Below are positions 2,798 through 63,582 of a stretch of DNA of 64,000 nucleotides, piece by piece (position 1 is the first letter of the stretch; the number at the start of each line of letters is the position of its first letter). The position numbers and the translations under genes were made by a program. The notes below the pieces were generated by a model. The model was given only the letters and a program-made list of their open reading frames with translations. It did no database searches and had not been told where the DNA came from. Source of the stretch: an uncultured bacterium (GTDB lineage Bacteria > Fermentibacterota > Fermentibacteria > Fermentibacterales > JCC-6); NCBI GenBank assembly GCA_964624405.1, contig CAZUXA010000008.1, positions 25,078 to 89,077 on the forward strand, read 5' to 3'.

Positions 2798-5221
2798 TCA
2801 TCCCGGAGGCTGGTCTTCGCCGGCCGCCTCAACAGCAACCGACCACTGACCGGATTCACGCCAATGAATGCTTTCGGCCCGGGTGACCGCGATGAGGTCG
2901 GTCTCGAAGGGCTTCAGGGCCATGATGTCATCCGCCGGGGCGGACACCGTGACTGCGCCCAGGGGGCTGGCCATTGACAGGTTGTTCACGCTTTTGCTGC
3001 GGCGGGCTTCCTCGATGATCTTCAGGGCCATCTCACCGTACTTGAGGGCGTTTTGGTCCGGAGTTCCGGGCTCGGGCCAGGGGGCGACATGAATGCTGGG
3101 GTGCTTCTCCCGTTCCCGGAACACAAGGTTGTAAAGTTCTTCGGTAATGTGGACCATTACCGGGGCGAAAAGCCTCAGAACACCATACAACACCGTGTAC
3201 AGGGCATATCGGGCCGCTGCTCCCGCTTCGTTGTCGTCGCCGTAAAGCCTGGATTTGACTATTTCGAGGTAATTGTCGCACAGGGCTTTCCAGAAAAAGC
3301 TCTCGGCTTCGGAGGTGCAGACCGAGTATTCGAACTCCTCCATCCCGGAGGTTGCTTTTCTGGCGGTTTCGCTGAACCTCGCCAGAATCCAGCGGTCAAA
3401 GGGATGCAGGGCAGGCGGGGCTTCCGGCACGAAATTCTCGAGGTGCCCCGCGGCAAACCTGGCGGCGTTCCAAAGCTTTGTCACCAGGCGCCTCCCCTCG
3501 CCAAGTACGTCCTGGCTGAACACCACATCTGTACCCAGACGGCTGGAGCACGCCCAGTAGCGAAGCTCGTCGGCGCTGTACACCTCCAGGGCCGCCAGGG
3601 GGTCGCCGGCCACATTCCCCTTGCTCTTGGACATCTTCTCCCGGCTGGGGTTCAGGGCGTGCCCGGATATCATCACGGTGTTCCAGGGAATATCGTCATG
3701 ATGAAGGTGGGCCTTCACTATGGTGTAAAACGCCCAGGTGCGTATGATGTCGTGGGCCTGGGGTCTGAGGCTCATGGGAAGTGTTATGTCTCTCTGGTCT
3801 TCCTCGCCCCATTTCCGGTTGATCTGTGGGGTGAGGCTGCTGGTGGCCCAGGTGTCCATCACATCGGTTTCCGGCAGGAAGCTGGTGCAGCCGCACGCGG
3901 GGCAGGGCTCTTCCGGGGAATCCACCAGGGGGTCCACAGGAAGCTGACGCGGCGTGGCGAAAACCGGCGTCTCACACCCGGCGCAATACCATACCGGGAA
4001 AGGCACACCGTAATAGCGCTGCCGGGAGATGCACCAGTCCCACTTCAGATTCTCCACCCAGTGATCGTACCTTACCCGGAAGTGGGCGGGACGCCAGTTG
4101 ATGGAGGCGGCCCTGTCCAGAAGCTGTTCCTTGAGGTCGAGGATGCGGATGAACCACTGCATGTTCACCAGGTATTCCAGTGGGGTTCCGCAACGCTCGT
4201 GGACATTCACCGCGTGGGTTATCTCCCTGCCGCCCTTCTCGAAGCCCTGATCTCTGAGCCGTTCGACCAGAACCTTTCGCGCCTTCTTCCAGAACATGCC
4301 CTCGAGAAAGCCTGCGTTTTGGTTCATGTGGCCCTTTTTGTCCAGCACTATTCGAAGCTCGAGGTTGCAGTCCTGCCACCACTGAATGTCGGTGGTGTCG
4401 CCGAAGGTGCAGCACATGACGGCGCCGGAGCCCTTCTCCATGTTCACCCCGGTGTCGGTGCGGATTTCCACCAGATGATGGAACATGGGTACGATGGCCT
4501 TCTTTCCCGCCAGGTGACTCCATCGGCGGTCGTCGGGATGGACGAAGACCGCCACACAGGCCGGAAGCAGCTCGGGCCTGGTGGTGGCTATGGGAATGGT
4601 GCCTGACCCGTCCTCCAGAGGAAACTCAAGGTCGTGGAAAAAGCCGGGCAGCTCCCTGTCTTCCGTTTCCGCCTGGGCCACGGCGGTGGCGCACTCCGGG
4701 CACCACAGCGTGGGGGATTCTTTCCTGTACACCCTGTTCCTGCCTGCCAGGTCCAGAAACGAGCGCTGACTGAGCCTCTGAACCCAGGGGTCGATGGTTG
4801 TGTAAAGCAGGCTCCAGTCACAGGAGAAGCCGAAGCGGGTCCAGAGGTCGCGGAACTGCTTTTCGGCGTCGGCGGTAACCTCGAGACACAGGTTCACGAA
4901 CTCTCCCCGGGTCATCTCGGTGGCCTTGACCCCCTTGACCTGCTCGGTGAAACGCTCGCTGGGCAGGCCATTGTCGTCGAAGCAGAAAGGGTAGAAAACC
5001 GAGTCGCCCAACATTCTCCGATAGCGGGTCATCACCTCGGCCTGAACGTAGCTGAAAACATGGCCCATGTGAATCATGCCGCTCACCGTCGGGGGCGGTG
5101 TGTCCACGGAAAAAATTCTCCGGCCCCCGCCGGGGGTGTACCTGTATATGCCCGTGTCGGTCCAGTGTTTCTGAAGCCTGGGTTCGGCTTCCCGGGGGTC
5201 GTACCGCTTGGGTAGTGACAC
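2798..5221 (-). CDS. valS: valine--tRNA ligase (short ~807 aa form)
   Basis: Class I aaRS motifs are present: a HIGH-like PPPTVSGMIHMGH and KMSKS. The N-terminus LPKRYDPREAEPRLQKHW is ValRS-like. Confidence 0.75.
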   Translation of the reverse strand: MSLPKRYDPREAEPRLQKHWTDTGIYRYTPGGGRRIFSVDTPPPTVSGMIHMGHVFSYVQAEVMTRYRRMLGDSVFYPFCFDDNGLPSERFTEQVKGVKATEMTRGEFVNLCLEVTADAEKQFRDLWTRFGFSCDWSLLYTTIDPWVQRLSQRSFLDLAGRNRVYRKESPTLWCPECATAVAQAETEDRELPGFFHDLEFPLEDGSGTIPIATTRPELLPACVAVFVHPDDRRWSHLAGKKAIVPMFHHLVEIRTDTGVNMEKGSGAVMCCTFGDTTDIQWWQDCNLELRIVLDKKGHMNQNAGFLEGMFWKKARKVLVERLRDQGFEKGGREITHAVNVHERCGTPLEYLVNMQWFIRILDLKEQLLDRAASINWRPAHFRVRYDHWVENLKWDWCISRQRYYGVPFPVWYCAGCETPVFATPRQLPVDPLVDSPEEPCPACGCTSFLPETDVMDTWATSSLTPQINRKWGEEDQRDITLPMSLRPQAHDIIRTWAFYTIVKAHLHHDDIPWNTVMISGHALNPSREKMSKSKGNVAGDPLAALEVYSADELRYWACSSRLGTDVVFSQDVLGEGRRLVTKLWNAARFAAGHLENFVPEAPPALHPFDRWILARFSETARKATSGMEEFEYSVCTSEAESFFWKALCDNYLEIVKSRLYGDDNEAGAAARYALYTVLYGVLRLFAPVMVHITEELYNLVFREREKHPSIHVAPWPEPGTPDQNALKYGEMALKIIEEARRSKSVNNLSMASPLGAVTVSAPADDIMALKPFETDLIAVTRAESIHWRESGQWSVAVEAAGEDQPPG

Positions 5222-38840: not shown

Positions 38841-38858
38841 GGTGGGGGGGGAAGATGT

Positions 38859-40277
38859 CTACAGGCGCATCACGATGAAGGATGTTCTGCCGTCGCGCCA
38901 GACAAGAAGCAAAGCGTTTCCAATCGAGTTTTCCAGTGCGCTTTCCACATCGGCGGGTGTTCTCACTCTTCTGCGGTTCACTTCCAGAATCACATCTCCC
39001 GCTTGAAGTCCCGCTCTCATCGCGTTGCCGTCCGGGGAAACATCCACGATAAGCACCGCTTCAGTATTATGTATTCCAAGACGCTCCGCCCGGTTCCCGT
39101 CCAGCTCCTGAAGCCGCCAGCCACGTTCGGATTCCTGAACCCGCGGAGTTTGGCCGGCGGCGGCGGGGGCGTCGGTTTGCGAGCCGAGACGCACCCTTAC
39201 AGTGCGCTCCCTGCCATTGCGTAGAACCGAGAAAGACACCCTGGTTCCGGGTTCTGTGGCGGCTATCCTGTTTCGGAATGAGGGGACGGAGGAAACCGGC
39301 TCACTCTCCACGGCGATGATGATGTCGCCCCTTTCAAGACCGGAACCCGATGCGGGGGTATCAGGAAGAATGTCCGCCAGCAGAACACCGGCAATCCCGT
39401 CCTGAACCCCGAACTGGCTTCGCAGTTCCTCGGTAAGCTCCTGTATCACCACACCGAGCCATCCCCTGCGGACCTCGCCGTAGAGAATCAGGTCGCTCAT
39501 AACATCCTGCACCATTTCAACCGGTATGGCGAAACCGATTCCCTGGTTTCCGCCGGTGCGGCTGGCGATGGCGGTGTTGATTCCGATAAGCTGGCCCCGA
39601 AGGTTCACCAGGGCGCCGCCGCTGTTGCCGGGATTGATTGCGGCATCGGTCTGGATGTAGGATTCGTAGTCCGCGAGGCCCACCCCTTCCCGTCCCAGAA
39701 AGCTGATGATTCCCTGGGTAACGGTCTGGCTCAGGGCGAAGGGGGAGCCTATGGCCAGCACCCATTCCCCCACCCTGGCTCCCCGGCTCTGGCCCATGGC
39801 AACCGCCGGAAGTCCCTCGGCTTCGATGCGAATCACAGCCAGGTCGGTTCTGCTGTCGGACGCCACCAGTTTCCCGGGATACACCTCACCGTTGGAAAGA
39901 ACAACTTCCAGCTCATGGGCCTCTCCGGCTACATGATGGTTCGTGACTATGAAACCGTCTTCCGTGACGATGACGCCACTGCCCAGACCCCTGCGGGTGA
40001 ACTCCCTCTCCCGGGGGGGGCCGAATCCGTAGAAACCCCAGGGAGTCATCCCGAAACCCGGGGATGTGGTGGTGACGGTGGTGCGGGAATTGATGGTGAC
40101 CACACTGGGCCCCACCATCTCCGCGATATCCGCGAAAAGCTCACTGATGGCCATCGGATCGCTGACATACACAGTGACCGTGTCGGGCTTCGCCTCAAAA
40201 CCTGCAACGGGAAACTCAGGAAGGGATTGCAGGAAAAACAGAGATACTGCGGCGAAGCTCAATAGTACCGTTGTCAA
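38859..40277 (-). CDS. htrA: periplasmic serine endoprotease DegP/HtrA (trypsin-like domain + 2 PDZ)
   Basis: The catalytic triad context (TNHHV, DLAVI, GNSGGAL) and two PDZ-like segments are present. Confidence 0.9.
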   Translation of the reverse strand: MTTVLLSFAAVSLFFLQSLPEFPVAGFEAKPDTVTVYVSDPMAISELFADIAEMVGPSVVTINSRTTVTTTSPGFGMTPWGFYGFGPPREREFTRRGLGSGVIVTEDGFIVTNHHVAGEAHELEVVLSNGEVYPGKLVASDSRTDLAVIRIEAEGLPAVAMGQSRGARVGEWVLAIGSPFALSQTVTQGIISFLGREGVGLADYESYIQTDAAINPGNSGGALVNLRGQLIGINTAIASRTGGNQGIGFAIPVEMVQDVMSDLILYGEVRRGWLGVVIQELTEELRSQFGVQDGIAGVLLADILPDTPASGSGLERGDIIIAVESEPVSSVPSFRNRIAATEPGTRVSFSVLRNGRERTVRVRLGSQTDAPAAAGQTPRVQESERGWRLQELDGNRAERLGIHNTEAVLIVDVSPDGNAMRAGLQAGDVILEVNRRRVRTPADVESALENSIGNALLLVWRDGRTSFIVMRL

Positions 40278-41859: not shown

Positions 41860-42531
41860 TTAGAAGAGGGACTTGATGGCTCCCCAGGAGTCACGGGTGA
41901 GGGAGGTTTCCGCGCCGCTGAGAATCATGAACTGCTCGTAGGCTTCGCCCCAGGCAGCCTGGCTGGTGATCCAGCTGCCGCCGTTGTCCTGGCTGAAGTA
42001 GGTCTGGTCGGCCCAGGTCTGGCTGGTGCAAAGCCAGTAGTGAGCGCCGGCGCCGCCGGTGGTCTGCATGGCGAACCAGTACTTGGTTCCACCGGTGAAG
42101 GTGATGTTGTCGGTAGGCGCGACCTCGGTGTACCAGATGGCGTATCCCCACTGGGAGAGACCGGTGTTCTCGTGGTAGGGGGTGCCGGAGGTGGTGCTCT
42201 GAACGATGGCTCCGGGGCCGGAACCGCTGTCGGAGCGGAGCTGAATGTTGAATCCGGTGCAGCTGGCGGAAGCGTAGATGGCCCAGATTTCGATGTTGTC
42301 GATGTAGCCATCAACTGCGTAGGTGAAGTCGTCGGCGATCATCCAGCTGTTGGGCTGGGAGAAGCCAACGCCGTTCACGAGGTTCGCGAAGACGAAGGGC
42401 TGGGAGCAGATGACATCTTCAAGGCTTACGCCTACGGGAATCAGCTCCTGGTTCAGGTGGCCGAGCTGGCTGGGGGGGGCCGCAAGGGCGAGCCCTGCGA
42501 GCAGTACCACGATAAGAGCGGTAATCTTCAT
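41860..42531 (-). CDS. small secreted protein with C-terminal SWGAIKSLF tail (start ATG 42531, AAGGAG RBS)
   Basis: A signal peptide and a G/S/T/W/Y-rich beta-sandwich-like body are present. The tail ...SLTRDSWGAIKSLF is shared with 47408..48007. Confidence 0.55.
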   Translation of the reverse strand: MKITALIVVLLAGLALAAPPSQLGHLNQELIPVGVSLEDVICSQPFVFANLVNGVGFSQPNSWMIADDFTYAVDGYIDNIEIWAIYASASCTGFNIQLRSDSGSGPGAIVQSTTSGTPYHENTGLSQWGYAIWYTEVAPTDNITFTGGTKYWFAMQTTGGAGAHYWLCTSQTWADQTYFSQDNGGSWITSQAAWGEAYEQFMILSGAETSLTRDSWGAIKSLF

Positions 42532-46118: not shown

Positions 46119-46273
46119 ATAACAGAACGGGCCCGCAAAAACCATGCGTTCAGAACAGCCCGATTACTGCTACCCGCTTCCCCGGCCCCGGGTTCCGGAG
46201 CAAGGCCCCCGCCGGCAGTTGACAGGGCGTGTTTTGAATATATTCTTGCGGAACACAACTGGAGGAATCATCT

Positions 46274-48019: not shown

Positions 48020-51000
48020 TCACGGTTCATCAAGGATTTTCCTGACCCTTGCAAGCAGAACTCCGAGAGAGAAGGGTTTCTGAAGAAAGTTCAGCCCTTC
48101 GTCGAGAACACCGTGAGCGGCAATGACATCGTCTGTGTATCCGCTCATGTAAAGGGTTTTTACCCCGGGCTTGAGCCGGGACACGCCTTCGCTGAGAACC
48201 CTTCCATTCATGCCCGGCATCACCATGTCGGTTATCAGCAGGTGAATCCGAGAGCCGAACCCGGCGGCAAGCTCAAGCGCATCCCCCGGCCGAGATGCCG
48301 CAAGAACCCTGTACCCCTTCTCCATCAGGGCTTCGGAAGCCATGCCAAGAATCATCCGTTCATCCTCAACGATGAGGATCGTTTCCGAACCCCCGGCGTT
48401 GGTCGCGGTTTCATCGGAATGGCTCGGGGAAAGAGGCTGTTCGACTCTGGGCAGGTAAACTCTGAAGGCTGCGCCCTGTCCGGGTTCACTTAAAACTTTT
48501 ATGGCGCCCCGGTTCTGGCTCACGATGCCGAACACGGTGGCGAGGCCGAGGCCGGTGCCCTTTCCCACCTCCTTGGTGGTGAAGAAAGGCTCGAAGAGAT
48601 AATCCATGTGGTTTTCACTGATACCGCACCCCGTGTCGCTCACCTCCATCATAACGTAATCCCCCGGGACAGCCTCCCCGTCGGCATCATCAGGGTGTCT
48701 TCCCAGAACGGCTCTGGTGGTTCTGATCTGGAGGGTTCCCTCTCCCTCGATGGCATCCCGGGCGTTCACCACCAGGTTGGCAAGCACCTGGTTCAACTGG
48801 TCGGGGTCGATCTTCACCTTCCACAAATCCCGGCCGGGGAGCCAGCGGAGCTGAATGTTCTCGCCGATAAGGCGCCGGAGCATGCTCAGCATTCGGGCCA
48901 GGGTTGAATTGAGGTCAATGACCCTGGGCTGGGCGGCCTGCTTTCTTGCAAACCCCAGAAGCTGCCGTGTAAGCCTCGCGGAGCGGTCCGCCGCGGCCCT
49001 GATCTCAGTCAGGCTGTTCATCAGCGGCGATTCAGGACTGAGCTGCTGGGCCATCATGTCGGCATGGCCCAGAATCACTCCGAGCATGTTGTTGAAGTCG
49101 TGGGCCACACCGCCGGCGAGTCTTCCTATCGACTCAAGCTTCTGGGCATGCAGGAACTGGGCCCGGAGCCTCTCCTTCTCTTCCTCCTCCCGCACCCTGT
49201 CGGTGATGTCGGTGGAGATGCCGCAGAGCCCGAGCGGGGTTCCATCCTCCCCCCGGACAATCTGGGTTCGGCAGTCAAGAATGATCTCTTCCCCGCTTCG
49301 GGTTCTGTTTACCACGGTGCCGCGCCAGTGTCCGTTCTTCAGGGTGTTCTTCAGAATCTCCGCCTGGGTGGCTCCCCGGGCGCGGTCATCCCCGTAGTCA
49401 CTCACATTCATTGCCATGAACTCTTCAACGGAGTAACCCAGTGATTCCACTTCCGCTGTGTTCACATAAGTGATGTTTCCTGAAAGGTCGGTAACCGTTA
49501 CCCTGTCGCTGATCTGGTCCAGCACCGCGGCCTGAAGCCGAAGCAGCTCTTCGGACTGTTTGCGCCGGGTTATGTCTACCGCTGCGAACACCTCTCCCTG
49601 AGAGGGGTCGGAGTCGTCAAGAAGGGTGACTCCTATGAGTACGCTGAGAAGCTCGCCGTCACCCCTTCTCATGGTGACCTCGGTGTTGCATACGCCCTTC
49701 TCCGCCAACTGGCTCTGTTTCTCCGCGCCAACGAATTCATACTCCTCATCCGATGGATAAAGATCCCTTGCGGACTTGCCCGCCATCTCTTCAGGCGGAA
49801 TCAGGAACATGTCGCAGAATGCCTGGTTTGCCTCGACAATGACCCTGTCTTTGACTATGCCAAGCCCGATCGGCGCCGCGGAGAAAAGAGCCTTAAGCTT
49901 TGCCTCGCTGTCCCGAAGGGCCTGGTCCGCTCTCTTGCTTCCGGTGATCTCCTCGTAGGTGCCCAGTATCCCCGTCACAGAACCGTCCGGAGCCCTGATG
50001 GGAATCTTGCTGGTTCGAAGCCAGATGATCTTTCCCTCAGGGGTTGTCTGGGGCTCTTCGTAACCGATTTTCGGCACGCCGGAGCGCATCACCTGCAAGT
50101 CGTCACTTCGGTACAGCTCGGCCTGATCCCTCCACCCCATCTGAAAATCGTTCTTCCCGATCAGTTCTTCCGGAGCGGTGAGCCCCGCATCCCTGGCGAA
50201 CGGCATGTTGCAGCCCAGGAAAGTGGACTGCAGATCCTTCCAGAATACCCTGACGGGAATCGTGTCGAGAACGCTCTGCAGAAGCTGACGGGCGTTCTGA
50301 AGCTGGGATTGGGCACGGTTCCGCTCCACGATTTCGCCGATAAGCCTGGCGGATGCCATCAACCTGCGCCTGGCGGTTTCCACTATGTAGGGAGGCCGTG
50401 ATTCGTATTCAGCGGCCCTTTCAGCCAGTTCCTCCGGCTCCACACCGTACTTCGCCGCCAGAGCGTCAAGCGTTTCGGAGTCTGTGGGAGGGTCGCCGAA
50501 AGCGGCGTTTATGGCTCCGACAACCTCTTCACCGGCAACGATTGGAACACCGTAAAGGGTAAGCCCCCCATTGCAGGAAATCTCCACCGGTTCGCCGGTT
50601 TCGATGGCTGCTTTCGCGCAATGGGTCCAGCATGATTCATGGCACAGCCACCTGCCGGAAGCCAGAGCCCGGGAATCATCAAGGGTTTCGCAAAGCCTGC
50701 GGGAGGAGTTGTCCAGAAAGCTGCACCAGCCGGAGGTGAATACTCCCATCGCGTAGTCTCCGTTGACCTCGTAAACAGCCGTCGAAGTGCCAAGCAGGTC
50801 CATGTAATCAGAAGCAATGCTTTCCAGGTTTTCCCTGCCCACGGAATCAAGAATCGTCCGGTTTGTGTTAAGCGCTGTAAGATCACCGTACCGGGGGGGG
50901 ATGGAAACATGTTTCTTCGGTGCGGCGGAAAGCATCCATTCCAGTCGTTTCAGCTTCTCCACAGCCATTTTTCGGGGCGTAATGTCTACGATGAAGCCCT

Positions 51001-53854: not shown

Positions 53855-54517
53855 ATGGGAAACACAGCGGACACAAGACAACGAATAGTCCTTGCCGCCA
53901 TTGCGATTCTGGAGCATGACGGCACCGCCGGGCTGACCATGCGCCGAATCGCCCGGGAAGCCGGGGTAAACCCCGCGGCGGTGAACTACCACTTCGGGTC
54001 CAAGGCCAACCTGCTTGAGCATGTGCTGTCTGTGACCAGAAGCCACATCTTCGAAGACTGGGCCACGGTGTTGAACACAGCCGAACTCAGCCAGGCCGCA
54101 AGGCTCTACTGCATGCTGGACATCCTGATGGAGGGAATCTCCCGGTATCCGGGAATGGTGCACACCCAGCTTTTCGAGGCCGGGGCGCGGGAACAGGGGC
54201 GAAAGGGTTTCGCCGGAGAACTCGGCGGATTCCTCGATTTCATGCAGAGCAGGCTTCAGGGCCTTGTTCCGAACGAATCCATCAACCTCCGGTTATCCCT
54301 GGCGCAGATGATCCTTTCAAGCCTGGCCGCGGCTCTGGTGCCGGAACTGCTGGATGCGGCGGTTGGTTCAATCCCCGAACCGGACCGCCGGGCCGCTTTC
54401 CTCAGAAACCTGATCAGGGGATTCGCGGGAACAGAGGTCAACATCTCCAAGGAAGAACTGGGAATCATGAGGGAGCTGCGCTCGATGGCTTTTTCCGAAA
54501 CCGTCGACAGGGACTGA
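53855..54517 (+). CDS. TetR/AcrR family transcriptional regulator
   Basis: An N-terminal HTH (LTMRRIAREAGVNPAAVNYHFGSK) is present. Confidence 0.9.
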   Translation: MGNTADTRQRIVLAAIAILEHDGTAGLTMRRIAREAGVNPAAVNYHFGSKANLLEHVLSVTRSHIFEDWATVLNTAELSQAARLYCMLDILMEGISRYPGMVHTQLFEAGAREQGRKGFAGELGGFLDFMQSRLQGLVPNESINLRLSLAQMILSSLAAALVPELLDAAVGSIPEPDRRAAFLRNLIRGFAGTEVNISKEELGIMRELRSMAFSETVDRD

Positions 54518-54518
54518 T

Positions 54519-56327
54519 ATGAACCTGGAACTGGTTGGAACTTTCGCCGTCCTTGGCATTGCGGTACTGCTCTTTCTCACCGAGCGCCTCCGTCCCGATG
54601 TGGTCTCCCTGTCCACCGTGGCGGCGCTGGCGGCGCTCGGGGTTCTCACCGCCGAGGAGTCCTTCTCGGGGTTCAGCAGCCAGGCCGTTATCACGCTGAT
54701 CTCCGTGTTCATTCTGGCGGAAGGCCTTACGCGAACCGGTGTCTCGGAACAGGTGGCGAAACTGTTGTTGAGATGGGGGGGCAAACGAGAGGGAAGGCTT
54801 GTTGGCCTGGTGATGGCTACGGGATCCGGGCTTTCCCTGTTTCTCAACAACATTGCCGCGGCGGCGGTTCTTCTTCCGGCGGTGGGGGGAGCGGCGAAAA
54901 AGGCGGGCATCTCTCCTTCCAGGGTTCTTATGCCCCTGGCCTTCGCCACCATTCTCGGAGGAATGGCAACCCTTCTCACCACGATGAACATCGTTGTCAG
55001 CAGTGTTCTTGAAGACAGCGGACTTCCGGGGTACGGCCTGCTCGACTTTCTTCCCGTGGGACTGCCAATGCTTCTCGCCGGCATTCTTTACATGATGATA
55101 TGGGGAAGGCGCCGCCTGCCCGCCGATGCCGGTCGGGAGAGTCTTCTCCGGGAAGCACGGGGAGAGGCTGACCTGCTGGACATCTACCGTATGGGAGACT
55201 TTTTCTTCAGGGCCAGAATTCCCGAAGGCTCTTTCCTTATCGGAAACACCCTCGCGCGAAGCACATTCAGGGAGGCTTTCGGGCTCAATGTGGTCGCCAT
55301 CGAGAAGGCCAACGGCCCTGTCGTGGCGCTGCAGCCTGAAACCGTATTCCAGAAGGGGGACATACTGATACTCGAGGGAAGCCAGGACGAGTTCCGCAGA
55401 AGGGACAGGGAGCCCTATCTTGAGATACTGCCCTGCCGCGCCCTGGAAGAAAACAGCATCCTCAATCTTTACGCGGTGTTCGCCGAGGCCATGCTCTCCC
55501 CCCGGTCGAGCCTGATCGGCCGCACCTTGAAAGAGGTTCTGTTCCGGCAGAAGTTCGGCATGTCGGTGCTGGCTATCTGGCGGGAGGGAACCCCGATAAA
55601 AACCGACATCGGAGATGTGAAGCTGGCATTCGGCGATGCCTTGCTGCTCCAGGGCCCCCGGGACAGGCTGAGGATTGTTGATCTTGACCCTGACCTGATA
55701 CTGCTTTCCATGGAGAAGGAGCCGCCGCCGGTGAAGCGGATGGGTCGGGTGGCAATGGTGATTCTTGTGGCCACCCTGGCCGCTGTGATTTTCACCCCGG
55801 TTCCCATGGCGCAACTTCTTCTCAGCGGCGCGGTTCTGATGCTTCTTTCGAAGGCGCTCACCATGGAGCAGGCCTACCGGGCGATTGACTGGAGGGGAAT
55901 CTTTCTGGTGGCGGGAATGCTTCCCCTGGCGCTGGCCATGATCAAGTCCGGCGCCGCTGACATCGTATCCGCTCTCCTGGTCTCAGCCTTCGGCGGGTTC
56001 AGCCCGCTGGTGATGGTTTCGGCACTCTTCATGGCATCGGCGCTGCTGACCCAGGCAGTGAACGGAGCGGCGGTGGCTGCAATGATGGCGCCCATCGCCA
56101 TCTCAGCCGCATCGGGATCAGGAGCGCCGGCGCACGCGCTGGGAATGGCGGTGGCTCTGGGCTCATCCATGGCGTTCCTCACACCCCTTGGCCACCCGGT
56201 CAACACTCTGGTAATGGGTGCCGGCGGCTATCGCTTCCGCGACTATCGCCGGGTGGGATGGCCGCTTTTCATGATTCTCACATTAGTGGCCATCGCGGGT
56301 ATGGCGGTTCGCTGGAAACTTGTCTAA
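54519..56327 (+). CDS. SLC13/DASS-family permease with two central TrkA-C domains
   Basis: Two transporter halves flank the tandem TrkA_C-like cytoplasmic domains, at about 602 aa. Confidence 0.7.
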   Translation: MNLELVGTFAVLGIAVLLFLTERLRPDVVSLSTVAALAALGVLTAEESFSGFSSQAVITLISVFILAEGLTRTGVSEQVAKLLLRWGGKREGRLVGLVMATGSGLSLFLNNIAAAAVLLPAVGGAAKKAGISPSRVLMPLAFATILGGMATLLTTMNIVVSSVLEDSGLPGYGLLDFLPVGLPMLLAGILYMMIWGRRRLPADAGRESLLREARGEADLLDIYRMGDFFFRARIPEGSFLIGNTLARSTFREAFGLNVVAIEKANGPVVALQPETVFQKGDILILEGSQDEFRRRDREPYLEILPCRALEENSILNLYAVFAEAMLSPRSSLIGRTLKEVLFRQKFGMSVLAIWREGTPIKTDIGDVKLAFGDALLLQGPRDRLRIVDLDPDLILLSMEKEPPPVKRMGRVAMVILVATLAAVIFTPVPMAQLLLSGAVLMLLSKALTMEQAYRAIDWRGIFLVAGMLPLALAMIKSGAADIVSALLVSAFGGFSPLVMVSALFMASALLTQAVNGAAVAAMMAPIAISAASGSGAPAHALGMAVALGSSMAFLTPLGHPVNTLVMGAGGYRFRDYRRVGWPLFMILTLVAIAGMAVRWKLV

Positions 56328-56602
56328 CCGTAGTAGCAGATGTAGGACGAAACCTCCAGAGCCCTGGCGGTAAAGGCTGTGTTTTCCGGAACGCTGAAGC
56401 TCTCACCCTTGCAGTAGGTTGTAATGTCATGTCCGGCATACTCCACCTCAATGGCGCCGTGGGTGACTTCCATCAGTTCCTTCAACCCCGTGGAGAACTC
56501 GTAGAATCCGGGCAGGATAACGCCGACGGTGAACCGCTGGCCAAGGGTTTCCGGCCCCAGGCTCTTCACATTGCCGTGGAAATACTCGTTGACCTCAATC
56601 AT
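56324..56602 (-). CDS. ppnP: pyrimidine/purine nucleoside phosphorylase PpnP (DUF1255 cupin), start at MIEVNEYF
   Basis: The N-terminus VNEYFHGNVKS is characteristic, at about 92 aa. Confidence 0.8.
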   Translation of the reverse strand: MIEVNEYFHGNVKSLGPETLGQRFTVGVILPGFYEFSTGLKELMEVTHGAIEVEYAGHDITTYCKGESFSVPENTAFTARALEVSSYICYYG

Positions 56603-56667
56603 CTCGTCTCCTTTCGTTTGAGACTGTATCATATCCCCGCACCTCCACCCGATGCAAAGGAGAAGGT

Positions 56668-57363
56668 ATGGTGGTCAGACAGTTTCGCTACGGAAACGAC
56701 AATCTGGGCTACGTGGTTCACGGGAAGACCGAGGCTCTCGCGATTGACGGCGGCGCCATCGGCCCGGTCACAAGGTATCTGGAAGAGAACGGTCTTGCGC
56801 TGACCATGATCACCAACACCCACTCCCACAGCGACCACACCGTCGGCAACGATGCCCTGATGACCCGGGACACCCGGCTCATCACCCCGGAAGAGGCCGC
56901 CGGCGCCGGTGAAATCATTGTGGAAGGCCACAGCATCCGGGTGATTCCCACACCAGGCCACACCCTGGACAGCGTTTGCTTCCACACTCCGGGATTCCTC
57001 ATGGCGGGGGACACCCTGTTCATTGGCAAGGTGGGCCGCTGCTTCTCCGGCAGAACAGACCTTCTGCTTCGCTCGATCCGAACACTGATGACCCTTCCCG
57101 GAGACACGGTTCTCTACCCGGGCCACGACTATGTGGAGGAGTACCTCGGCTGGTGCAGAACCCTGGAACCCAAGAACCGCCATCTGGACCAGGCCATGCG
57201 CCTTTATGACCGTAGTGATGTGCGCTCCACGCTGGGCAGGGAGAAACTGGTAAACCCCTTCCTGCACATGGACAACGACGATGTGGAGGAAGCCCTGAAA
57301 CGGAGAGGGTTGCCCCGGGAAAGCATCGGGGAGCGATGGAACTCGCTGCTTGGTCTTATGTGA
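56668..57363 (+). CDS. MBL-fold metallo-hydrolase (glyoxalase II-like)
   Basis: The THSHSDH motif and downstream His/Asp ligands are present. Confidence 0.85.
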   Translation: MVVRQFRYGNDNLGYVVHGKTEALAIDGGAIGPVTRYLEENGLALTMITNTHSHSDHTVGNDALMTRDTRLITPEEAAGAGEIIVEGHSIRVIPTPGHTLDSVCFHTPGFLMAGDTLFIGKVGRCFSGRTDLLLRSIRTLMTLPGDTVLYPGHDYVEEYLGWCRTLEPKNRHLDQAMRLYDRSDVRSTLGREKLVNPFLHMDNDDVEEALKRRGLPRESIGERWNSLLGLM

Positions 57364-57774
57364 AAGCTCCTTGGAACATCCGGTTGATGGAGCCTGGTAC
57401 GCCCGTCTTCCGTTCAGTCGAACCTTTTCCGGTGAAACATACGCTCTGATTCTTCCCCGACCCGATGTGATGGTGAAGCCGAAATCACCTCGGGGGCCGT
57501 TGCGTAACCCGCTCATCTTCGCCCGGGAACTCCATGAGGAAATGCTCCGGCATAACCTCAAGAGGGTGCAGATTGGGCAAAGACATGGCGTACCTCGGGC
57601 AGGATCACCCAGTGGCTCTGCCTGCTGAAGCTGCCGGATGAAAAGCAGAGGGAGGTTTAAACCCTGGAGGACCACTGGGACCGAAGGGTGGTGACGGAGC
57701 GGGGGTTGAGGAAGTAGGCCATAAATGCGGAATGATTTGAATAAGGAGAGAGATGTGAGCCATGATGACAGGTA

Positions 57775-57812
57775 TTGACACTCCCCCCCCCCCCCTATTT
57801 ATTCTATTGACC
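57775..57812 (+). promoter_or_regulatory. putative promoter: perfect -35 TTGACA followed by a spacer that is mostly a C13 homopolymer (57783-57795), then an AT-rich -10-like TATTTATTCTA
   Basis: The hexamer and homopolymer are seen directly. They lie about 100 nt upstream of the island operon ATG 57897. Confidence 0.4.
57783..57795. repeat. poly(C)13 homopolymeric tract (candidate slipped-strand phase-variation site)
   Basis: Thirteen consecutive C residues are counted in the sequence. Confidence 0.9.
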
Positions 57813-57896
57813 AGGCATAACAAAAGTGTCTTTTGATAAGGAATCCTATTACATGTTCTCAGTCTCGTGACAGGGCTGTTGAACGCAGGAGGGAAA

Positions 57897-59069
57897 ATGG
57901 TTTTCGTGATCCTTGCTCTGACGGTGCTGATGGTTTCTACTCCATCACCCAGAGAACTATCGGAAAGAACTGAACCCTGGGTACGGGAAGATGTCACAAT
58001 CACCTCGGTATCCGAGTTCCACACCTCCGACTTCCTCCGTGAGGGGGAAAGGGTTCACCTCCTTCACCACGCCTTCCTCGATGACGAGAACGAAACACTC
58101 CGCACCGTTGTCTGCACTGACACGCGGGTGATCGTGCTGGAAGAGGGTTTGGTGCAGAGAGAGATAGTTCTGGAGCACACGATCAATCATGCCAATATAT
58201 CCCCAATGGGAATGTTTCTGGTTTCCCATCGAGACATGGATGCTCCTTCAAGTGCTCGATCCCTTAGGGTTGATACCGAGACGGGGGAACAGATCCATTT
58301 CACCACTCACCCCGGGCGGGAAATGCAGGTCAATGAACCATGGACATGGCCACAGGATGACGGTTCGCTGGTAACTAGACTGGGAAGCTACCTATGGTTT
58401 TTTGATACTGATCTAAACCCTGCGCAAGAACTCCGTGTCTCACCTTGGGGTTCCGATGTATGGGCTGCAAGAAACACAGACATTGTTTTTGTTTCCGGCA
58501 CAACACTGTCGGCTTACAACCGTCGTGGCGAACTTCTATGGACCATCTCCGATGAGTACAATCGGGCCAGGGTCAACAGTGCAGCGATTTCTGATGACGG
58601 CAGCCTCGTGGGGCTAGCATCGCGTGATGGGGCATTCCTTTTTGACGGAACTACAGGAACCGTCGTCGCGGAGTACTTCACAACCGGGAATACTGGCTTT
58701 GGTGTTGGTCAGATCATCTTAAGCCCTTTGGGAAAAAGATTTCTTGTTATACGGTTAGACGATCGAGTTATCGTATCATCGGGTTGTCTGGAAACAGGAG
58801 AGCAATACTCCTTTGCTTTGGGTGCCCGTGTTCGAGCCATACTGGATTGCGGGATCGCGCTTCTGGATTCCATGGTATTGGATTCACACCTCAATCCGTA
58901 CTACGTTCCGGGCAGGCATATCTACGCGATCTCCTCTTCAGGGAGAAGACTTGTCCAGGCTTCCGAGTGGTTCCCGACGCACCCTAACTCTGCCTTCGCT
59001 GCTACTGGTATACAGAGCGTTCTGCCTGCTGGATTCCAGGTTATGGAGCTTCAGGCAGGAGGCAACTGA
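57897..59069 (+). CDS. secreted PQQ/WD-like beta-propeller protein (start ATG 57897, AGGAGGG RBS)
   Basis: A signal peptide is present, with repeated ...GELLWT.../...DGSLVG...DG... blade-like motifs. It is translationally coupled to the next gene by an ATGA-type overlap. Confidence 0.55.
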   Translation: MVFVILALTVLMVSTPSPRELSERTEPWVREDVTITSVSEFHTSDFLREGERVHLLHHAFLDDENETLRTVVCTDTRVIVLEEGLVQREIVLEHTINHANISPMGMFLVSHRDMDAPSSARSLRVDTETGEQIHFTTHPGREMQVNEPWTWPQDDGSLVTRLGSYLWFFDTDLNPAQELRVSPWGSDVWAARNTDIVFVSGTTLSAYNRRGELLWTISDEYNRARVNSAAISDDGSLVGLASRDGAFLFDGTTGTVVAEYFTTGNTGFGVGQIILSPLGKRFLVIRLDDRVIVSSGCLETGEQYSFALGARVRAILDCGIALLDSMVLDSHLNPYYVPGRHIYAISSSGRRLVQASEWFPTHPNSAFAATGIQSVLPAGFQVMELQAGGN

Positions 59070-59071
59070 TC

Positions 59072-61813
59072 ATGAAGAAGACTGCCTTCACTTTCTACTG
59101 CTGCCTGATCGGGATGCTTGGCTCCGGTGCTGCAACAAGTGATCCATTCGACTACAACCCTGGCTTCATCCGATTCCCTTTTGCTCGAAGTGGTTCTGAC
59201 TTCACTAACACCTGCAAGGGATATGGCGACAACAATATGGGTTTTGGTCTGAAGCTCTTCCACGCTGGCGTGGACTTCCAGGCAGAAGACACAACGGAGT
59301 ATGTCAGAACACCTTTCGACCCCGCTTATGTCATTCGTGCAGATTCAGATAGTCTTCAGCTTGACTGGCGTGTTATCTTCGGTCTTTCCGCCAACGCAGA
59401 AACGGGATGGGGATATCACCACCTTTATCGTCCCCAAGGATTTGCTGTAACCGACTCATTTACAGGCCTTGTTTCACCCGTAGTCGTAACGCCGGATCTT
59501 GGTCCTCATGTGCACATTGACTGGTGCATTAACTTGAATAGTATCTATGTGGAGGGTAATCTTATCGTATACGACAGCTACATCAATCCCCTTGACTACT
59601 TTCTGAACAAGCCTTCGAACTATGACCATCCTGAGCTTGGAGAGGTTTCAGGCTCTTCGACCGGGCTACGAATACAGAATACACAGGGCTTTTTGCCGGA
59701 CACAGCTGTTTTCGGCCAGGTTCATTTTGTGGCTCGTCCGGTTTCTGCTCCGGACTATGGTTCAACATCAGATTCCGTCGGAGTCAGATACCTTCGGCAC
59801 AGGGTGCTCAGGCAGGATCCTTACACCGGCGAGTATGCTCCTCTTCCATGGTACGACTGGCGAACACTGTTCAGTATGAACGGGTTCATCCCTTTTCAGG
59901 GTGATGAGTTCTTTGATTTCGTATACGCCACAACTTCAGGCCACTATCACAGCGAATACCTCCTTAACAACTGCGGCACCACCCCAGTTGGTCTGAACGC
60001 TGATTCTGCCTTCAACAATGTCTGGACTGCCGGGTACGATCGCGCGCAGGACTGGGCTGATGGTGTGTTCTGCCGGGGAGCCTTCGATACGAGGCTGGGA
60101 ACTAGTACTTACAACCAGCAGAGCTGCGACAACAGCAACGCCTTGATCCCCGACGGCCGCTACTGCGTTGAGATGGAGGCGTACTCACATGGAAACTCGC
60201 AAGCGCAGACATGGAGGCTCCCTGTGCTTGATGTGGCAGCCGAGAACCTGTCGCCTGGCGACTCGTCAAATGTACGAGGGTTCATCGTGGACAACTTTGC
60301 TCCCCATGTTGCCTCTCTTCTCGTTTACTTGCCTGTGGAACCCGGTTCTCCCGACACTATCTACAACGCTGAGTGGATTCTGTCCCCATCCATGGACCAA
60401 CGACACCTCGCTGGAGGAGATCTTGCGATGTACCTCAGTGAATCCCAAGAGCAATGGGTTGGTGTTGCTGTGCTCTTCTCGGAAACGATGGCTTCTTTGC
60501 CTGACATTTGGATAAGCGGAGAATGGGGAGGTCAGATACGATGGACTTCAGCTAACCTCACCGCGACAGAGTGGGACTATGACAACTTGGGAGAACCTCC
60601 TTCTGCGCCTCCTGGCCATTCCTGGCAGTCTTACAGGACAGATTCCGGAATTACGACCTACCATGGAGCCCTAAGACTGAACATTCAAGGGGGAGCAGAC
60701 CTCTCAGGAAACAGCATTGACGCCAACCCGGCAACAATTGCGGTCCGTGATGCTAACGGCAACTTCTCCGGTTATGAACAAGGCACTGATAACGGATACA
60801 TCTGGGGCACAACCATCCCGATTTGGTCTAAAAATAGCTCAGATCTAACAAAAGTGGAAAGCTACAATACTCGATACGGGTTTCTTGAGGCTACGATCAG
60901 CTATTTCTTCGGTCAGTACAAAATACTCGCTGGGGCTATACCTATCACTCAATACAGCAGTTGCCCCTACTGGCATGGCTTCTGGATGATGAGGAATCAA
61001 AGTTCACAGCCCCCCTCCATGACTTCACCGCGAGTGTGTATAATCGATTTTAATGGAACAGTTGTTCGAACTTTTCTTTTGGGTAATGCGCACACGCTCT
61101 ATCCAGTAAGTATCGATTCTGAGAACTCCTCCCATATTGATGTGCATCTACAGACAGGCAGTGTTGAAGATGGAACTTTCGGCGACTACCTCTGGGTTTC
61201 AATAACAAATTACGAACCAAGTATGGTGTTCTGGGGAGCGTACTATGTAACTTTTCTAAAATGCTTCACCGCACAGGGGTTGACCAGTCATCACCACATA
61301 TCGAAGGGGTTTGCTTACTTTCGTGATTCAAATGAGATCGTGTTCTACGACTCATTACGGTCAGTTTCTACCAATGGAAGCTCTTGTATTTATGACTGGA
61401 TTGAGCAAAACCCCAACGAACCTTACAACATCCATGGAAGCTACAATGGTAGTTACTTCAATTTCAGCCCCCCCGGAATTGGCACCGGAGATACCGATCC
61501 GGTCAGATCAAGCCGTCAAGACTCTGGTATTGCTGATGCTTCGGAAGTTCCTTCTGTTGCCTTCGGTCTTTCGATCAATCGGAATCCAGTCTCTTCGGAG
61601 TTGATGCTCCGGATCAGTCTGGAGCGTTCTGGTCCTGTTGAAGTGTTCATCTATGACATTGCAGGCAGAACAGTGCTGAAGGCTCTCGAGGAGGACTTGT
61701 CCGCAGGAGTACACAGCCTGACTGTGCCGGTTCATCTTCCCGGCGGCATCTACTTCTGCAGGCTCCGTTCCGGGTCCGACATCGCCTCGGAGAAACTGGT
61801 GATCCTTCGATAG
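59072..61813 (+). CDS. large secreted protein with an N-terminal M23 (lysostaphin/LytM-like) peptidase domain, central W/Y/G/N-rich region, and a T9SS C-terminal sorting domain
   Basis: The M23 motifs HAGVDF (H-x-x-x-D, aa about 64) and HVH (aa about 146) are present. Their spacing is lysostaphin-like (..GVDF..TEYVRTPFDPAYVI..GWGYHHLY..GPHVHIDW). The C-terminal segment is NPVSSELMLRISL...VFIYDIAGRTV...GIYFCRL. Confidence 0.6.
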   Translation: MKKTAFTFYCCLIGMLGSGAATSDPFDYNPGFIRFPFARSGSDFTNTCKGYGDNNMGFGLKLFHAGVDFQAEDTTEYVRTPFDPAYVIRADSDSLQLDWRVIFGLSANAETGWGYHHLYRPQGFAVTDSFTGLVSPVVVTPDLGPHVHIDWCINLNSIYVEGNLIVYDSYINPLDYFLNKPSNYDHPELGEVSGSSTGLRIQNTQGFLPDTAVFGQVHFVARPVSAPDYGSTSDSVGVRYLRHRVLRQDPYTGEYAPLPWYDWRTLFSMNGFIPFQGDEFFDFVYATTSGHYHSEYLLNNCGTTPVGLNADSAFNNVWTAGYDRAQDWADGVFCRGAFDTRLGTSTYNQQSCDNSNALIPDGRYCVEMEAYSHGNSQAQTWRLPVLDVAAENLSPGDSSNVRGFIVDNFAPHVASLLVYLPVEPGSPDTIYNAEWILSPSMDQRHLAGGDLAMYLSESQEQWVGVAVLFSETMASLPDIWISGEWGGQIRWTSANLTATEWDYDNLGEPPSAPPGHSWQSYRTDSGITTYHGALRLNIQGGADLSGNSIDANPATIAVRDANGNFSGYEQGTDNGYIWGTTIPIWSKNSSDLTKVESYNTRYGFLEATISYFFGQYKILAGAIPITQYSSCPYWHGFWMMRNQSSQPPSMTSPRVCIIDFNGTVVRTFLLGNAHTLYPVSIDSENSSHIDVHLQTGSVEDGTFGDYLWVSITNYEPSMVFWGAYYVTFLKCFTAQGLTSHHHISKGFAYFRDSNEIVFYDSLRSVSTNGSSCIYDWIEQNPNEPYNIHGSYNGSYFNFSPPGIGTGDTDPVRSSRQDSGIADASEVPSVAFGLSINRNPVSSELMLRISLERSGPVEVFIYDIAGRTVLKALEEDLSAGVHSLTVPVHLPGGIYFCRLRSGSDIASEKLVILR

Positions 61814-62016: not shown

Positions 62017-62092
62017 TGGCGCTCCCAAGGGGACTCGAACCCCTGTTTCCGGCGTGAGAGGCCAGCGTCCTAGGCCACTAGACGATGGGAGC
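62017..62092 (-). tRNA. tRNA-Glu (anticodon CUC), CCA encoded
   Basis: The reverse complement folds as a canonical cloverleaf. The 7-bp acceptor is GCTCCCA/TGGGAGC, the anticodon stem-loop is CUGGC-CUCUCAC-GCCGG, and the T-arm is AGGGG-TTCGAGT-CCCCT. The overall sequence is close to bacterial tRNA-Glu. Confidence 0.85.
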
Positions 62093-62127
62093 GCGGAGCG
62101 GCAATATCGGTTTGGAGCCCTGGTTCG

Positions 62128-63582
62128 TCAACCCCGGCCGTGCTTCTTCTCCAATGCCTTCAGCTTCTTGCCGGACATTCCCCCCAGTGCTTCAATGGCG
62201 GCCATGATTCGCCTTCTCGCGAGGTCGGAACCCAGCAGTTCCATCCCCGCGTAAAGGGGCGGCCCCACCCTGGCACCGGTCATTGCGGTGTAGAACGGGG
62301 CTGTGAAGTCTTTGGTTTTAACGCCGAACTCCCGGGAAAGCTCATCGAAAACGGCTCTTACCGCTTCTTCGGTCCACTCCTTCAACTCCTCCAACCGCCA
62401 GAGGGACACCTGAAGCACTTCCTTCACGCCGTCGTCGTCCATGCCCTTCAGTGTCAGCAATTCCGCAGACGGACCCACGGAATCCGAGAAGAACATGGAG
62501 GACATCCGGCCCCAGTCACCCAGGGTTTCCATCCTGCTTCCCACCACGGCCAGCACTCTTTTCAGATGGCTCCCGTTAAGTTTCCAATCCTCGAGAACAG
62601 GAAGAAGGGTATCCGGCGTGTAGTTTTCCCTTAGGTACCTGGCGTTGAGCCAGCGCAGCTTGTCAAGGTCGAAAACCGGCCCGCCCAGCCTGATGTCCGA
62701 GAGCTGAAAGTGGTGGAGCATCTCCTGGAAGGTGAACTTCTCCGAACCGTCGGGCATGCTCCAGCCCATCATCCCCAGATAATTGACCAGCGCTTCCGGC
62801 AGAAAACCCGCCTGCCGGTAATACTGGATGGAAGTCGGGTTTCTCCTCTTGCTCAGTTTGCTCTTGTCCGGGTTTCTGAGCAGGGGCAGGTGGCAGAACA
62901 CCGGTGGTTCCCACCCGAACATCTCATACAGCAGAACATGCTTCGGCACGGAGTTGATCCACTCCTCCCCCCGGATGATGTGGGTTATCTCCATAAGGTG
63001 GTCGTCCACCACCACCGCCAGGTGGTATGTGGGATAGCCGTCGCTTTTCATTATGACCTGGTCGTCCACGGAGGCCCAGTCTTTTCTTATCTCGCCCCGG
63101 AGCAGATCCTTAAACACGCATTCCCCCTCCAGGGGAGCCTTCATTCTCACCACGAAGGGTTCGCGCCTCATGGTCCGGTCCGCGGCTTCATCGGCGGAAA
63201 GCTGACGGCACAGCCTGTCGTATCCCCGGTTGGAATCACCGCTGGCGGCCTGATCCATCCTCACCGCTTCCAGCCTCTCCCGGGTGCAGAAGCAGGGGTA
63301 GGCGTGGCCTTTTTCGATCAGCTGTTCAACATGCTTCCGGTAGATGTCAAGCCGTTCACTCTGCCTGAACGGACCCTTGTCCCATGTGAGGCCCAGCCAC
63401 TGAAGGCATTCCAGTATGGCTCTTTCATGCACGGGGTCGGATCGCTCCCTGTCGGTATCCTCGATCCGAAGAATGAACTCTCCGCCGTTCTTAACAGCCC
63501 ACAGCTTTCCAAACAGAGCCTGGTAGGCCGTTCCCACATGGGGGTCGCCGGTGGGTGATGGAGCAAGCCTTGTTCTGACCAT
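62128..63582 (-). CDS. gltX: glutamate--tRNA ligase (start at MVRTRLAPSPTG)
   Basis: HIGH (PHVGT) and KMSKS-like (KLSKR) motifs and the GluRS catalytic core are present. Confidence 0.9.
   Translation of the reverse strand: MVRTRLAPSPTGDPHVGTAYQALFGKLWAVKNGGEFILRIEDTDRERSDPVHERAILECLQWLGLTWDKGPFRQSERLDIYRKHVEQLIEKGHAYPCFCTRERLEAVRMDQAASGDSNRGYDRLCRQLSADEAADRTMRREPFVVRMKAPLEGECVFKDLLRGEIRKDWASVDDQVIMKSDGYPTYHLAVVVDDHLMEITHIIRGEEWINSVPKHVLLYEMFGWEPPVFCHLPLLRNPDKSKLSKRRNPTSIQYYRQAGFLPEALVNYLGMMGWSMPDGSEKFTFQEMLHHFQLSDIRLGGPVFDLDKLRWLNARYLRENYTPDTLLPVLEDWKLNGSHLKRVLAVVGSRMETLGDWGRMSSMFFSDSVGPSAELLTLKGMDDDGVKEVLQVSLWRLEELKEWTEEAVRAVFDELSREFGVKTKDFTAPFYTAMTGARVGPPLYAGMELLGSDLARRRIMAAIEALGGMSGKKLKALEKKHGRG

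Follow-up and report, generated by a model that had tools for sequence, protein, structure and literature searches.

The 64,000-nt stretch of contig CAZUXA010000008.1 analyzed here (assembly GCA_964624405.1), referred to below as the window, comes from an uncultured bacterium of anaerobic digesters whose nearest named relative is Candidatus Fermentibacteria. It contains, at 57783-57795, a run of 13 C residues (C13) upstream of a tight operon of two open reading frames (ORFs): ORF390, the product of which belongs to no known family, and ORF913, which encodes a predicted cargo protein of the type IX secretion system (T9SS). The tract lies between a -35-like hexamer and a pair of -10-like hexamers, and its length differs between close strains and between homologous loci, while its flanks are kept. 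In this study, the locus was compared with other assemblies of the same organism and with homologous modules of other lineages, and the tract was considered as a candidate promoter repeat of the contingency-locus kind.

The C tract and its immediate surroundings

The segment at 57775-57812 reads TTGACACTCCCCCCCCCCCCCTATTTATTCTATTGACC. Together with the leader that follows, it is made up of the following features:

57775-57780, + strand: TTGACA, a perfect -35-like hexamer (sequence reading); part of the first TATTGAC copy (57773-57779)
57781-57782: CT dinucleotide between TTGACA and the C run
57783-57795, no strand assigned (.): C13 homopolymer, the putatively hypermutable element (sequence reading, homopolymer listing and allele comparison)
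57796-57805, + strand: TATTTATTCT, two overlapping -10-like hexamers, TATTTA (57796-57801) and TATTCT (57800-57805)
57805-57812, + strand: second TATTGAC(C) repeat, containing the -35-like TTGACC; kept in all alleles
57813-57896, + strand: conserved leader up to the ATG (allele alignment), with the Shine-Dalgarno sequence AGGAGGG at 57887-57893

One copy of the direct repeat TATTGAC stands on each side of the C tract. With 13 C residues, TTGACA is separated by 15 nt from TATTTA and by 19 nt from TATTCT, neither distance being 17 nt, and no -10-like hexamer was found 16-18 nt downstream of TTGACC (57807). From the end of the tract to the ATG of ORF390 at 57897, which the good Shine-Dalgarno sequence precedes, the distance is 101 nt, in agreement with the initial annotation of this DNA, which had placed the tract about 100 nt upstream of the operon. 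The same annotation had set the C13 run immediately after a perfect TTGACA; both run and hexamer are present as described, but the CT dinucleotide intervenes between them.

C13 is the only homopolymer longer than 8 nt in the window. Under a first-order Markov model of the window, 0.07 runs of C or G of at least 13 nt are expected per 64 kb, and chance is therefore not strongly excluded from one window alone. Since single-window statistics are not decisive, the case is carried by comparison with other sequences.

Several smaller features were noted in the course of these readings. The next-longest homopolymers in the window are four G8 runs (38844-38851, 40013-40020, 42472-42479 and 50893-50900), those at 40013 and 50893 lying inside long minus-strand ORFs on the ORF map; all four are possibly minor slippage sites. 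The conserved leader contains a mini-ORF of five codons (57853-57870; ATG TTC TCA GTC TCG TGA) that is kept in all alleles, the single change seen being the synonymous TCG to TCT in L097 and L101; it has no preceding Shine-Dalgarno sequence and may be a chance occurrence. A minus-strand ORF (57605-58024) that crosses the tract as GGGG was considered and rejected, because the allele length differences of 1, 3 and 4 nt break its frame.

Length alleles in strains and homologous modules

The locus was recovered by exact-protein look-up from seven other assemblies of the same organism, the comparison being confined to these although over 20 additional contigs exist for the species; some of these samples may share projects, so that their independence is partial. 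The tract is C13 in ERZ27252308, ERZ27252285, JGI 3300033161, JGI 3300033174 and JGI 3300033177 and C12 in ERZ27252292 (k141_137834, L091), while the contig of JGI 3300034686 begins at 58097, downstream of the tract, and gives no reading of it. In seven assemblies, from both ENA and JGI, the tract is internal to long contigs. The C12 locus (L091) represents a separate haplotype, which differs from the window by four substitutions in 7.2 kb. When eight loci were compared pairwise with the window, over about 60 kb in total, the difference between C12 and C13 was the sole indel. A metagenome-contig collection that does not include this organism was scanned with two patterns, one allowing a gap of variable length in place of the tract and one consisting of the left flank; neither gave a match, and a viral-contig scan was likewise negative.

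The ORF913 family is rare, with nine homologues, the closer of which have approximately 53-54% protein identity to ORF913. The closer homologues have a common layout, in which an intact small HTH_ParB gene is followed by an intergenic region of approximately 160 nt, an ORF390 homologue (385-399 amino acids) and an ORF913 homologue. From TATTTATTC to the ATG (104-105 nt), five homologous modules are 89-96% identical to the window with one 1-nt indel, and this block is the best-conserved 100 nt of the whole module; strong conservation starts at GACAGGTATTGAC. TTGACA is invariant across six alleles, with the exception of TTGACC in L096, and the distance from TTGAC to TATTTATTC varies from 9 to 16 nt over these six alleles, which represent six lineages:

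Window: A-CT-C13 between TTGAC and TATTTATTC; spacer to TATTCT 19 nt
L091: A-CT-C12 between TTGAC and TATTTATTC; spacer to TATTCT 18 nt
L092-L095: A-CT-C7-A-C3-A-C, equal in total length to C13; spacer to TATTCT 19 nt
L097/L098: A-CTT-C9; spacer to TATTCT 16 nt
L096: C9 (a 10-C run including the C of TTGAC); spacer to TATTCT 12 nt
L101: A-CT-C4-TC, then TAATTATTC; spacer to TATTCT 12 nt

A long tract (C9-C13) is kept in four lineages and is interrupted (C7AC3AC) in one. In L101 (GCA_030153525.1, JASEKR010005886.1, 4140-8091) the tract is down to C4 and both operon genes are frameshifted, this copy being either a decayed module or a low-quality assembly. The length differs at every locus while the flanks are nearly invariant, and this comparison lends good support to the reading of the tract as a hypermutable repeat whose position within a conserved regulatory region is constant.

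A more distant homologous operon (L106/L107; 30% identity) has neither a C tract nor an HTH_ParB gene, and carries TTGACG-17-GATACT approximately 75 nt upstream of its ATG. In L106, positions 2900-2990 belong to a long AT-rich upstream region, and a gene for a Y1 transposase lies nearby.

The operon, its products and the islet

The operon lies in an islet bounded on its right by a tRNA gene. The genes of the region are as follows:

53855-54517, + strand: TetR regulator
54519-56327, + strand: CitMHS transporter
56324-56632, - strand: PpnP
56668-57363, + strand: MBL-fold hydrolase
57470-57735, + strand: HTH_ParB-type pseudogene (alignment with L097/L098; weak HTH_ParB match of the reconstructed peptide)
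57897-59069, + strand: ORF390, first gene of the operon; hydrophobic N-terminus, no known family
59072-61813, + strand: ORF913, predicted T9SS cargo protein, starting 2 nt after ORF390
62017-62092, - strand: tRNA-Glu(CTC), right bound of the islet (ARAGORN)
62128-63582, - strand: gltX

ORF390 is always paired with a member of the ORF913 family. ORF913 begins with a signal peptide and a divergent domain of the M23/LytM-like type, continues with a long middle region that is diversifying, and ends in a Por_Secre_tail sorting domain; the signal-like N-terminus (MKKTAFTFYCCLIGMLGSGAATS) was judged by inspection only. Residues 838-911 match TIGR04183 with 34.8 bits (cut-off 23) and PF18962 with 28.4 bits (cut-off 27). 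On the evidence of this domain ORF913 is a predicted T9SS cargo protein of type A, secreted or surface-located, and the T9SS label that the operon had initially been given holds, with a sorting domain above the curated cut-offs in the second product.

The M23 label given at the same time stands as regards the fold and the HxxxD and HxH motifs, but failed every sequence-profile test. No Pfam or NCBIfam match to M23 (PF01551) was obtained at E values of up to 10 for the N-terminal region of ORF913, nor for ten homologues and eight distant relatives, relatives of this kind having been collected by an exhaustive phmmer search; PDB profile searches gave no significant match, and weak Tse1-like PDB matches (E of about 0.5) were dismissed as non-significant. 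HxxxD (64-68) and HxH (145-147) are invariant and 81 residues apart, and FHxGxDF and GxHxHxxW are kept in all homologues that cover the region. The full-length AlphaFold model of ORF913 was unusable, with a predicted local distance difference test (pLDDT) score of 33, and an AlphaFold2 model of the N-terminal domain had a core pLDDT of approximately 70. When residues ~65-160 were compared using Foldseek, the top 18 PDB matches were all M23/LytM domains (E of 2.6e-3 to 0.15, probability up to 1.0), among them EnpA, ShyA, NMB0315, EnvC, DipM and Csd1-3. Given the invariant motifs and these matches, the term M23-like is reasonable at the level of fold and motif, and the evidence that the N-terminal domain may be of the M23/LytM type is moderate in strength. 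ORF913 resembles the M23/LytM endopeptidases (lysostaphin, LytM, EnpA and ShyA) in its predicted fold and in HxxxD/HxH, but differs from them in having no Pfam, NCBIfam or PDB profile match even at E values of up to 10.

The coding regions of the operon (57897-61813) are mosaic relative to L092, L096 and L097, with blocks of 85-94% DNA identity alternating with blocks of 31-50%, especially in 60300-61500. This pattern suggests segmental replacement or diversifying selection on what is probably a secreted protein. PHROGs and PADLOC returned nothing for ORF390 or ORF913.

The G+C content is 59% for the window and 50-53% for the islet (~57.4-62.0 kb), and that of third codon positions is 0.53 for ORF390 and ORF913 against ~0.70-0.78 for their neighbors and ~0.72 for the remainder of the window. 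The islet adjoins the 3' end of tRNA-Glu. Within the species collection, the nearest genomes by GltX (75% identity each) are two metagenome-assembled genomes, one of Candidatus Fermentibacteria (L009) and one of an uncultured bacterium (L008). L009 retains cupin-gltX-tRNA-Glu and CitMHS-TetR, but these are separated by approximately 5 kb of unrelated genes, among which is a further ORF that ends in a T9SS tail. Because L009 carries unrelated genes at the same site, the tRNA-Glu site is taken to be a variable hot-spot and the operon to be an acquired islet. Neither an integrase ORF in the window nor tRNA-derived direct repeats (att) at the islet borders were found.

The HTH_ParB pseudogene in the window has lost 1 nt near 57591 and is interrupted by an in-frame TAA at 57658. 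In relatives, intact HTH_ParB genes (88-122 amino acids) head the modules, and the homologues in L092, one of which (4235-4603) encodes 122 amino acids, match HTH_ParB at E=4e-7. Genes of this type also head unrelated cargo, namely an 814-residue beta-propeller T9SS protein in L092 and a small ORF with a radical-SAM gene in L102, and the intact copies as a whole encode 79-122 amino acids. Upstream of each HTH_ParB gene there is a repeat of approximately 100 nt with TGGTAC(A/G)C motifs (L092, 1380-1480 and 4265-4350; window, 57385-57411; L102, ~2330-2400). Modules of an HTH_ParB gene plus cargo are arranged in tandem, with the look of a repeated unit that may recombine.

Two further observations concern the left border of the islet. 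Logan contigs from two different runs (SRR10872666 and SRR10872648) both stop exactly at 57424, which is 61 nt beyond the end of the MBL gene and already within the start of the module; this shared end probably reflects a branch of the assembly graph at the border, due either to a repeat or to variation between strains. In addition, L089/L090 differ from the window by nine substitutions clustered at 57211-57345, six of them in 57329-57345, and this cluster, at the 3' end of the MBL-hydrolase gene adjoining the border, looks like a recombination tract.

Interpretation of the tract and comparison with known systems

The lineage employs sigma-70-type promoters with -35 and -10 elements. Upstream of tRNA-Glu (window 62103-62131, minus strand), a footprint of the form TTGACG/A-17-18-GATATT/AATATT is kept in four genomes (the window, L008, L009 and L010), with the hexamers maintained while the spacer sequence between them diverges; the form in the window is TTGACG-17-GATATT. 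Consensus promoter matches in the window are concentrated in intergenic regions upstream of genes. The hexamer pair found at the tract recurs as TTGACA-16-TATTCT at 46219-46246, 28 nt upstream of a housekeeping gene at 46274, and in L102 the HTH_ParB gene is followed at an analogous distance by TTGACA-17-TATGAT. Shine-Dalgarno-like cores precede 25 of the 40 genes. A promoter of the Bacteroidetes type (TTTG / TAnnTTTG) was rejected, as this motif occurs just six times in 64 kb and Shine-Dalgarno sequences and -35/-10 footprints are present. Since canonical -35/-10 promoters are used in this lineage, TTGACA at 57775 is a credible -35 element, and the tract is directly flanked by the best -35 and -10 matches of the intergenic region.

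The explanation that we favor, with a probability of roughly 0.5, is that C13 is a hypermutable simple-sequence repeat in a sigma-70-type promoter region of the horizontally acquired ORF390-ORF913 operon. Slipped-strand mispairing during replication would add or remove C residues, and the length of the tract would set the distance and the helical phase between TATTGACA on its upstream side and the -10-like hexamers on its downstream side. TATTGACA could act as a -35 box, as an operator for the HTH_ParB-type regulator of the module, or as both, and transcription of the operon would thereby vary between cell lineages, heritably and reversibly. As far as geometry goes, C10-C12 would bring TATTCT, and C14-C16 would bring TATTTA, to 16-18 nt from TTGACA, and C13, with its spacings of 19 and 15 nt, would correspond to low expression, with a single slip being enough to reach either of these permissive ranges. 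This explanation supposes that the hexamers may form a working promoter, that tract length may alter expression and that the length variation may be selected rather than just tolerated. As in recognized contingency loci, a long homopolymer is found upstream of a gene, its length differs between close strains while the flanks are kept, and the product is secreted or exposed at the surface. A promoter location of the tract is plausible, switching of expression is a proposal, and the locus, judged from its sequence, is a good candidate for membership in a known class, that of contingency loci with a repeat in the promoter, among which the Bordetella fim C-stretch and Neisseria opc resemble it most.

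A number of points weigh against this explanation. The consensus promoter scan calls no promoter across the tract, the spacings being 15 and 19 nt with C13. Over the alleles, the spacing to TATTCT takes values of 19, 18, 19, 16, 12 and 12 nt, a range wider than a working -35/-10 promoter tolerates. Furthermore, L092-L095, which come from several samples and have intact genes, carry a stabilized, interrupted tract at the same 19-nt spacing as the window, which implies either that 19 nt is not an OFF state or that the hexamers are not operative; given the C13 spacings and their recurrence in these intact loci, the ON lengths are not readable from the sequence. Five of the six same-organism assemblies agree on C13, with no large shifts between samples, and the consensus difference between C12 and C13 could partly be stutter at a long homopolymer. 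In addition, a few C or G runs of at least 13 nt per genome could arise without selection. The initial annotation had proposed a slippage-prone tract in a promoter spacer, which would give stochastic ON/OFF control of a secreted lytic enzyme. The change in length is confirmed among near-identical strains and among homologous loci with nearly invariant flanks; the promoter spacer has partial support, in that TTGACA is a credible -35 element, but no promoter was called and the spacers are 15 and 19 nt rather than 17 nt.

Among the alternatives, the one that survives best, and which we nevertheless regard as rather unlikely, is that the tract is a slippery but neutral linker between conserved elements whose distance from one another is irrelevant, such as an upstream operator and a core promoter located wholly downstream around TTGACC (57807). 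The range of 9-16 nt between the flanks in loci with intact genes, the silence of the promoter scan across the tract and the fact that chance can produce runs of this length at a frequency that is not negligible all agree with a linker of this type. However, TTGACC is not followed by a -10-like hexamer at 16-18 nt and the best intergenic -35 and -10 matches are those directly beside the tract, while long tracts without selection should decay through interruption or contraction, yet C9-C13 is kept in four lineages.

Less probable still is an activator-distance switch of the type found in Bordetella fim, in which TATTGACA would be the site of a putative regulator, for example the HTH_ParB protein, the tract would set its distance to the -10 element, and expression would need the regulator. 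The fim promoters offer a precedent (PMC1891110). An HTH_ParB gene directly precedes the promoter in all close relatives, the two TATTGAC copies that flank the tract are candidate binding sites, and an activator-dependent promoter would account better than a simple one for L092-L095, where the genes are intact and the spacing is locked at 19 nt. In the window, however, the HTH_ParB gene is dead and the operon intact, so that the regulator would have to act in trans, and TTGACA matches the -35 consensus perfectly in a lineage where -35 boxes are in use.

We consider it very unlikely that the tract acts on RNA, being transcribed in a read-through or leader RNA from the promoter of the HTH_ParB gene and operating through polymerase slippage or through base-pairing between its C residues and the G-rich Shine-Dalgarno sequence. 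The HTH_ParB gene lies 40 nt upstream in the same orientation, no clear terminator intervenes, and a minimum-energy fold that includes the tract pairs some of the C residues with the GGAGGG region. Nevertheless, relative to shuffled controls the leader plus tract has a less stable fold (z = +2.0) and the leader alone shows no excess stability (z = 0.18), the leader has no Rfam match, the upstream gene is dead in the window, and strong conservation starts at GACAGGTATTGAC, as expected of the start of a promoter. Finally, an artefact of sequencing or assembly, such as a miscalled homopolymer or spurious poly-G/C at read ends, the possibility of which had been raised at the outset, is excluded for practical purposes: errors are common in long homopolymers and the tract of one assembly is shorter by a single base, but the tract reads C13 in five further assemblies and C12 in a sixth, lies within the long contigs described above, and has a C tract at the equivalent position in homologous loci from unrelated studies, in six lineages overall.

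Returning to a hypermutable promoter repeat, its significance would lie both in the organism and in the product. To our knowledge, nearly all contingency loci based on repeats have been described in pathogens adapted to a host. If the explanation is correct, stochastic switching would extend to community interactions in the environment, in an uncultured candidate-phylum bacterium of anaerobic digesters, and the switch would govern a diversifying, T9SS-secreted and probably cell-wall-degrading protein; by analogy, a secreted and diversifying product such as ORF913 would be the usual type of target of such switches. A broader proposal, which we offer tentatively as a possibility, is that Fermentibacteria-like bacteria may have a family of recombining modules, not described before and headed by HTH_ParB genes, to which the locus would belong; each would consist of a small ParB-type HTH gene, a conserved promoter box containing a C-stretch, and diversifying T9SS cargo. 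In such modules the switch could give stochastic, heritable control of an M23-like bacteriolytic enzyme, as bet-hedging in interbacterial antagonism or in the avoidance of phages or predators by a free-living digester organism rather than by a host-adapted pathogen. The candidate predicts multimodal tract lengths and expression that follows tract length, which can be checked in public read sets; should tract length have no effect on expression, the finding shrinks to a slippery intergenic homopolymer.

Several known systems are built in a similar manner. A TA-repeat promoter of Haemophilus influenzae hifA/hifB was reportedly described by van Ham in 1993, and the vlp genes of Mycoplasma hyorhinis have a poly-A promoter tract in a conserved promoter region, with coding regions that diverge. 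In both systems, variable surface proteins are expressed from promoters whose strength depends on the length of a repeat placed between the -35 and -10 elements, as is proposed here; the repeat unit and the organisms differ. In Neisseria meningitidis, a poly-C promoter tract in opc is said to have been reported by Sarkari in 1994 and a poly-G promoter tract in porA by van der Ende in 1995; these two are the classic examples of spacer tracts. C12-C13 is reported to give full expression of opc, the promoter of which has no -35 box. The likeness consists of a homopolymer in or beside the -35/-10 spacer of a gene for an outer-membrane or surface protein, where single-base slippage alters promoter geometry. 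The lengths in Neisseria cluster within 2-3 nt of the optimum, whereas the spacings in the present modules span 12-19 nt.

The closest analogue is provided by the fim genes of Bordetella pertussis and B. bronchiseptica, the promoter C-stretch of which was reportedly recognized by Willems in 1990. The fim2, fim3 and fimX genes share a conserved promoter element with a varying C-stretch (C7 to C19), which sets the distance from the activator site to the -10 element and hence transcription (Gogol et al., 2007; PMC1891110). The Neisseria promoters have mapped transcription starts and expression data and the effects on expression have been demonstrated in Bordetella fim, whereas the present locus, in comparison with these systems as with hif and vlp, is known from sequence alone. 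The upstream element in Bordetella is a BvgA activator site without a -35 box, in contrast to the perfect TTGACA found here; the cargo is a fimbrial subunit rather than a T9SS-secreted M23-like protein, and the host is a pathogen rather than an uncultured digester bacterium. The tract lengths are C7 to C19 in Bordetella fim and C4 to C13 in the modules described here, and the two systems are alike in having a poly-C tract within a conserved promoter element, genes for surface or secreted proteins downstream of it, and allelic variation in its length.

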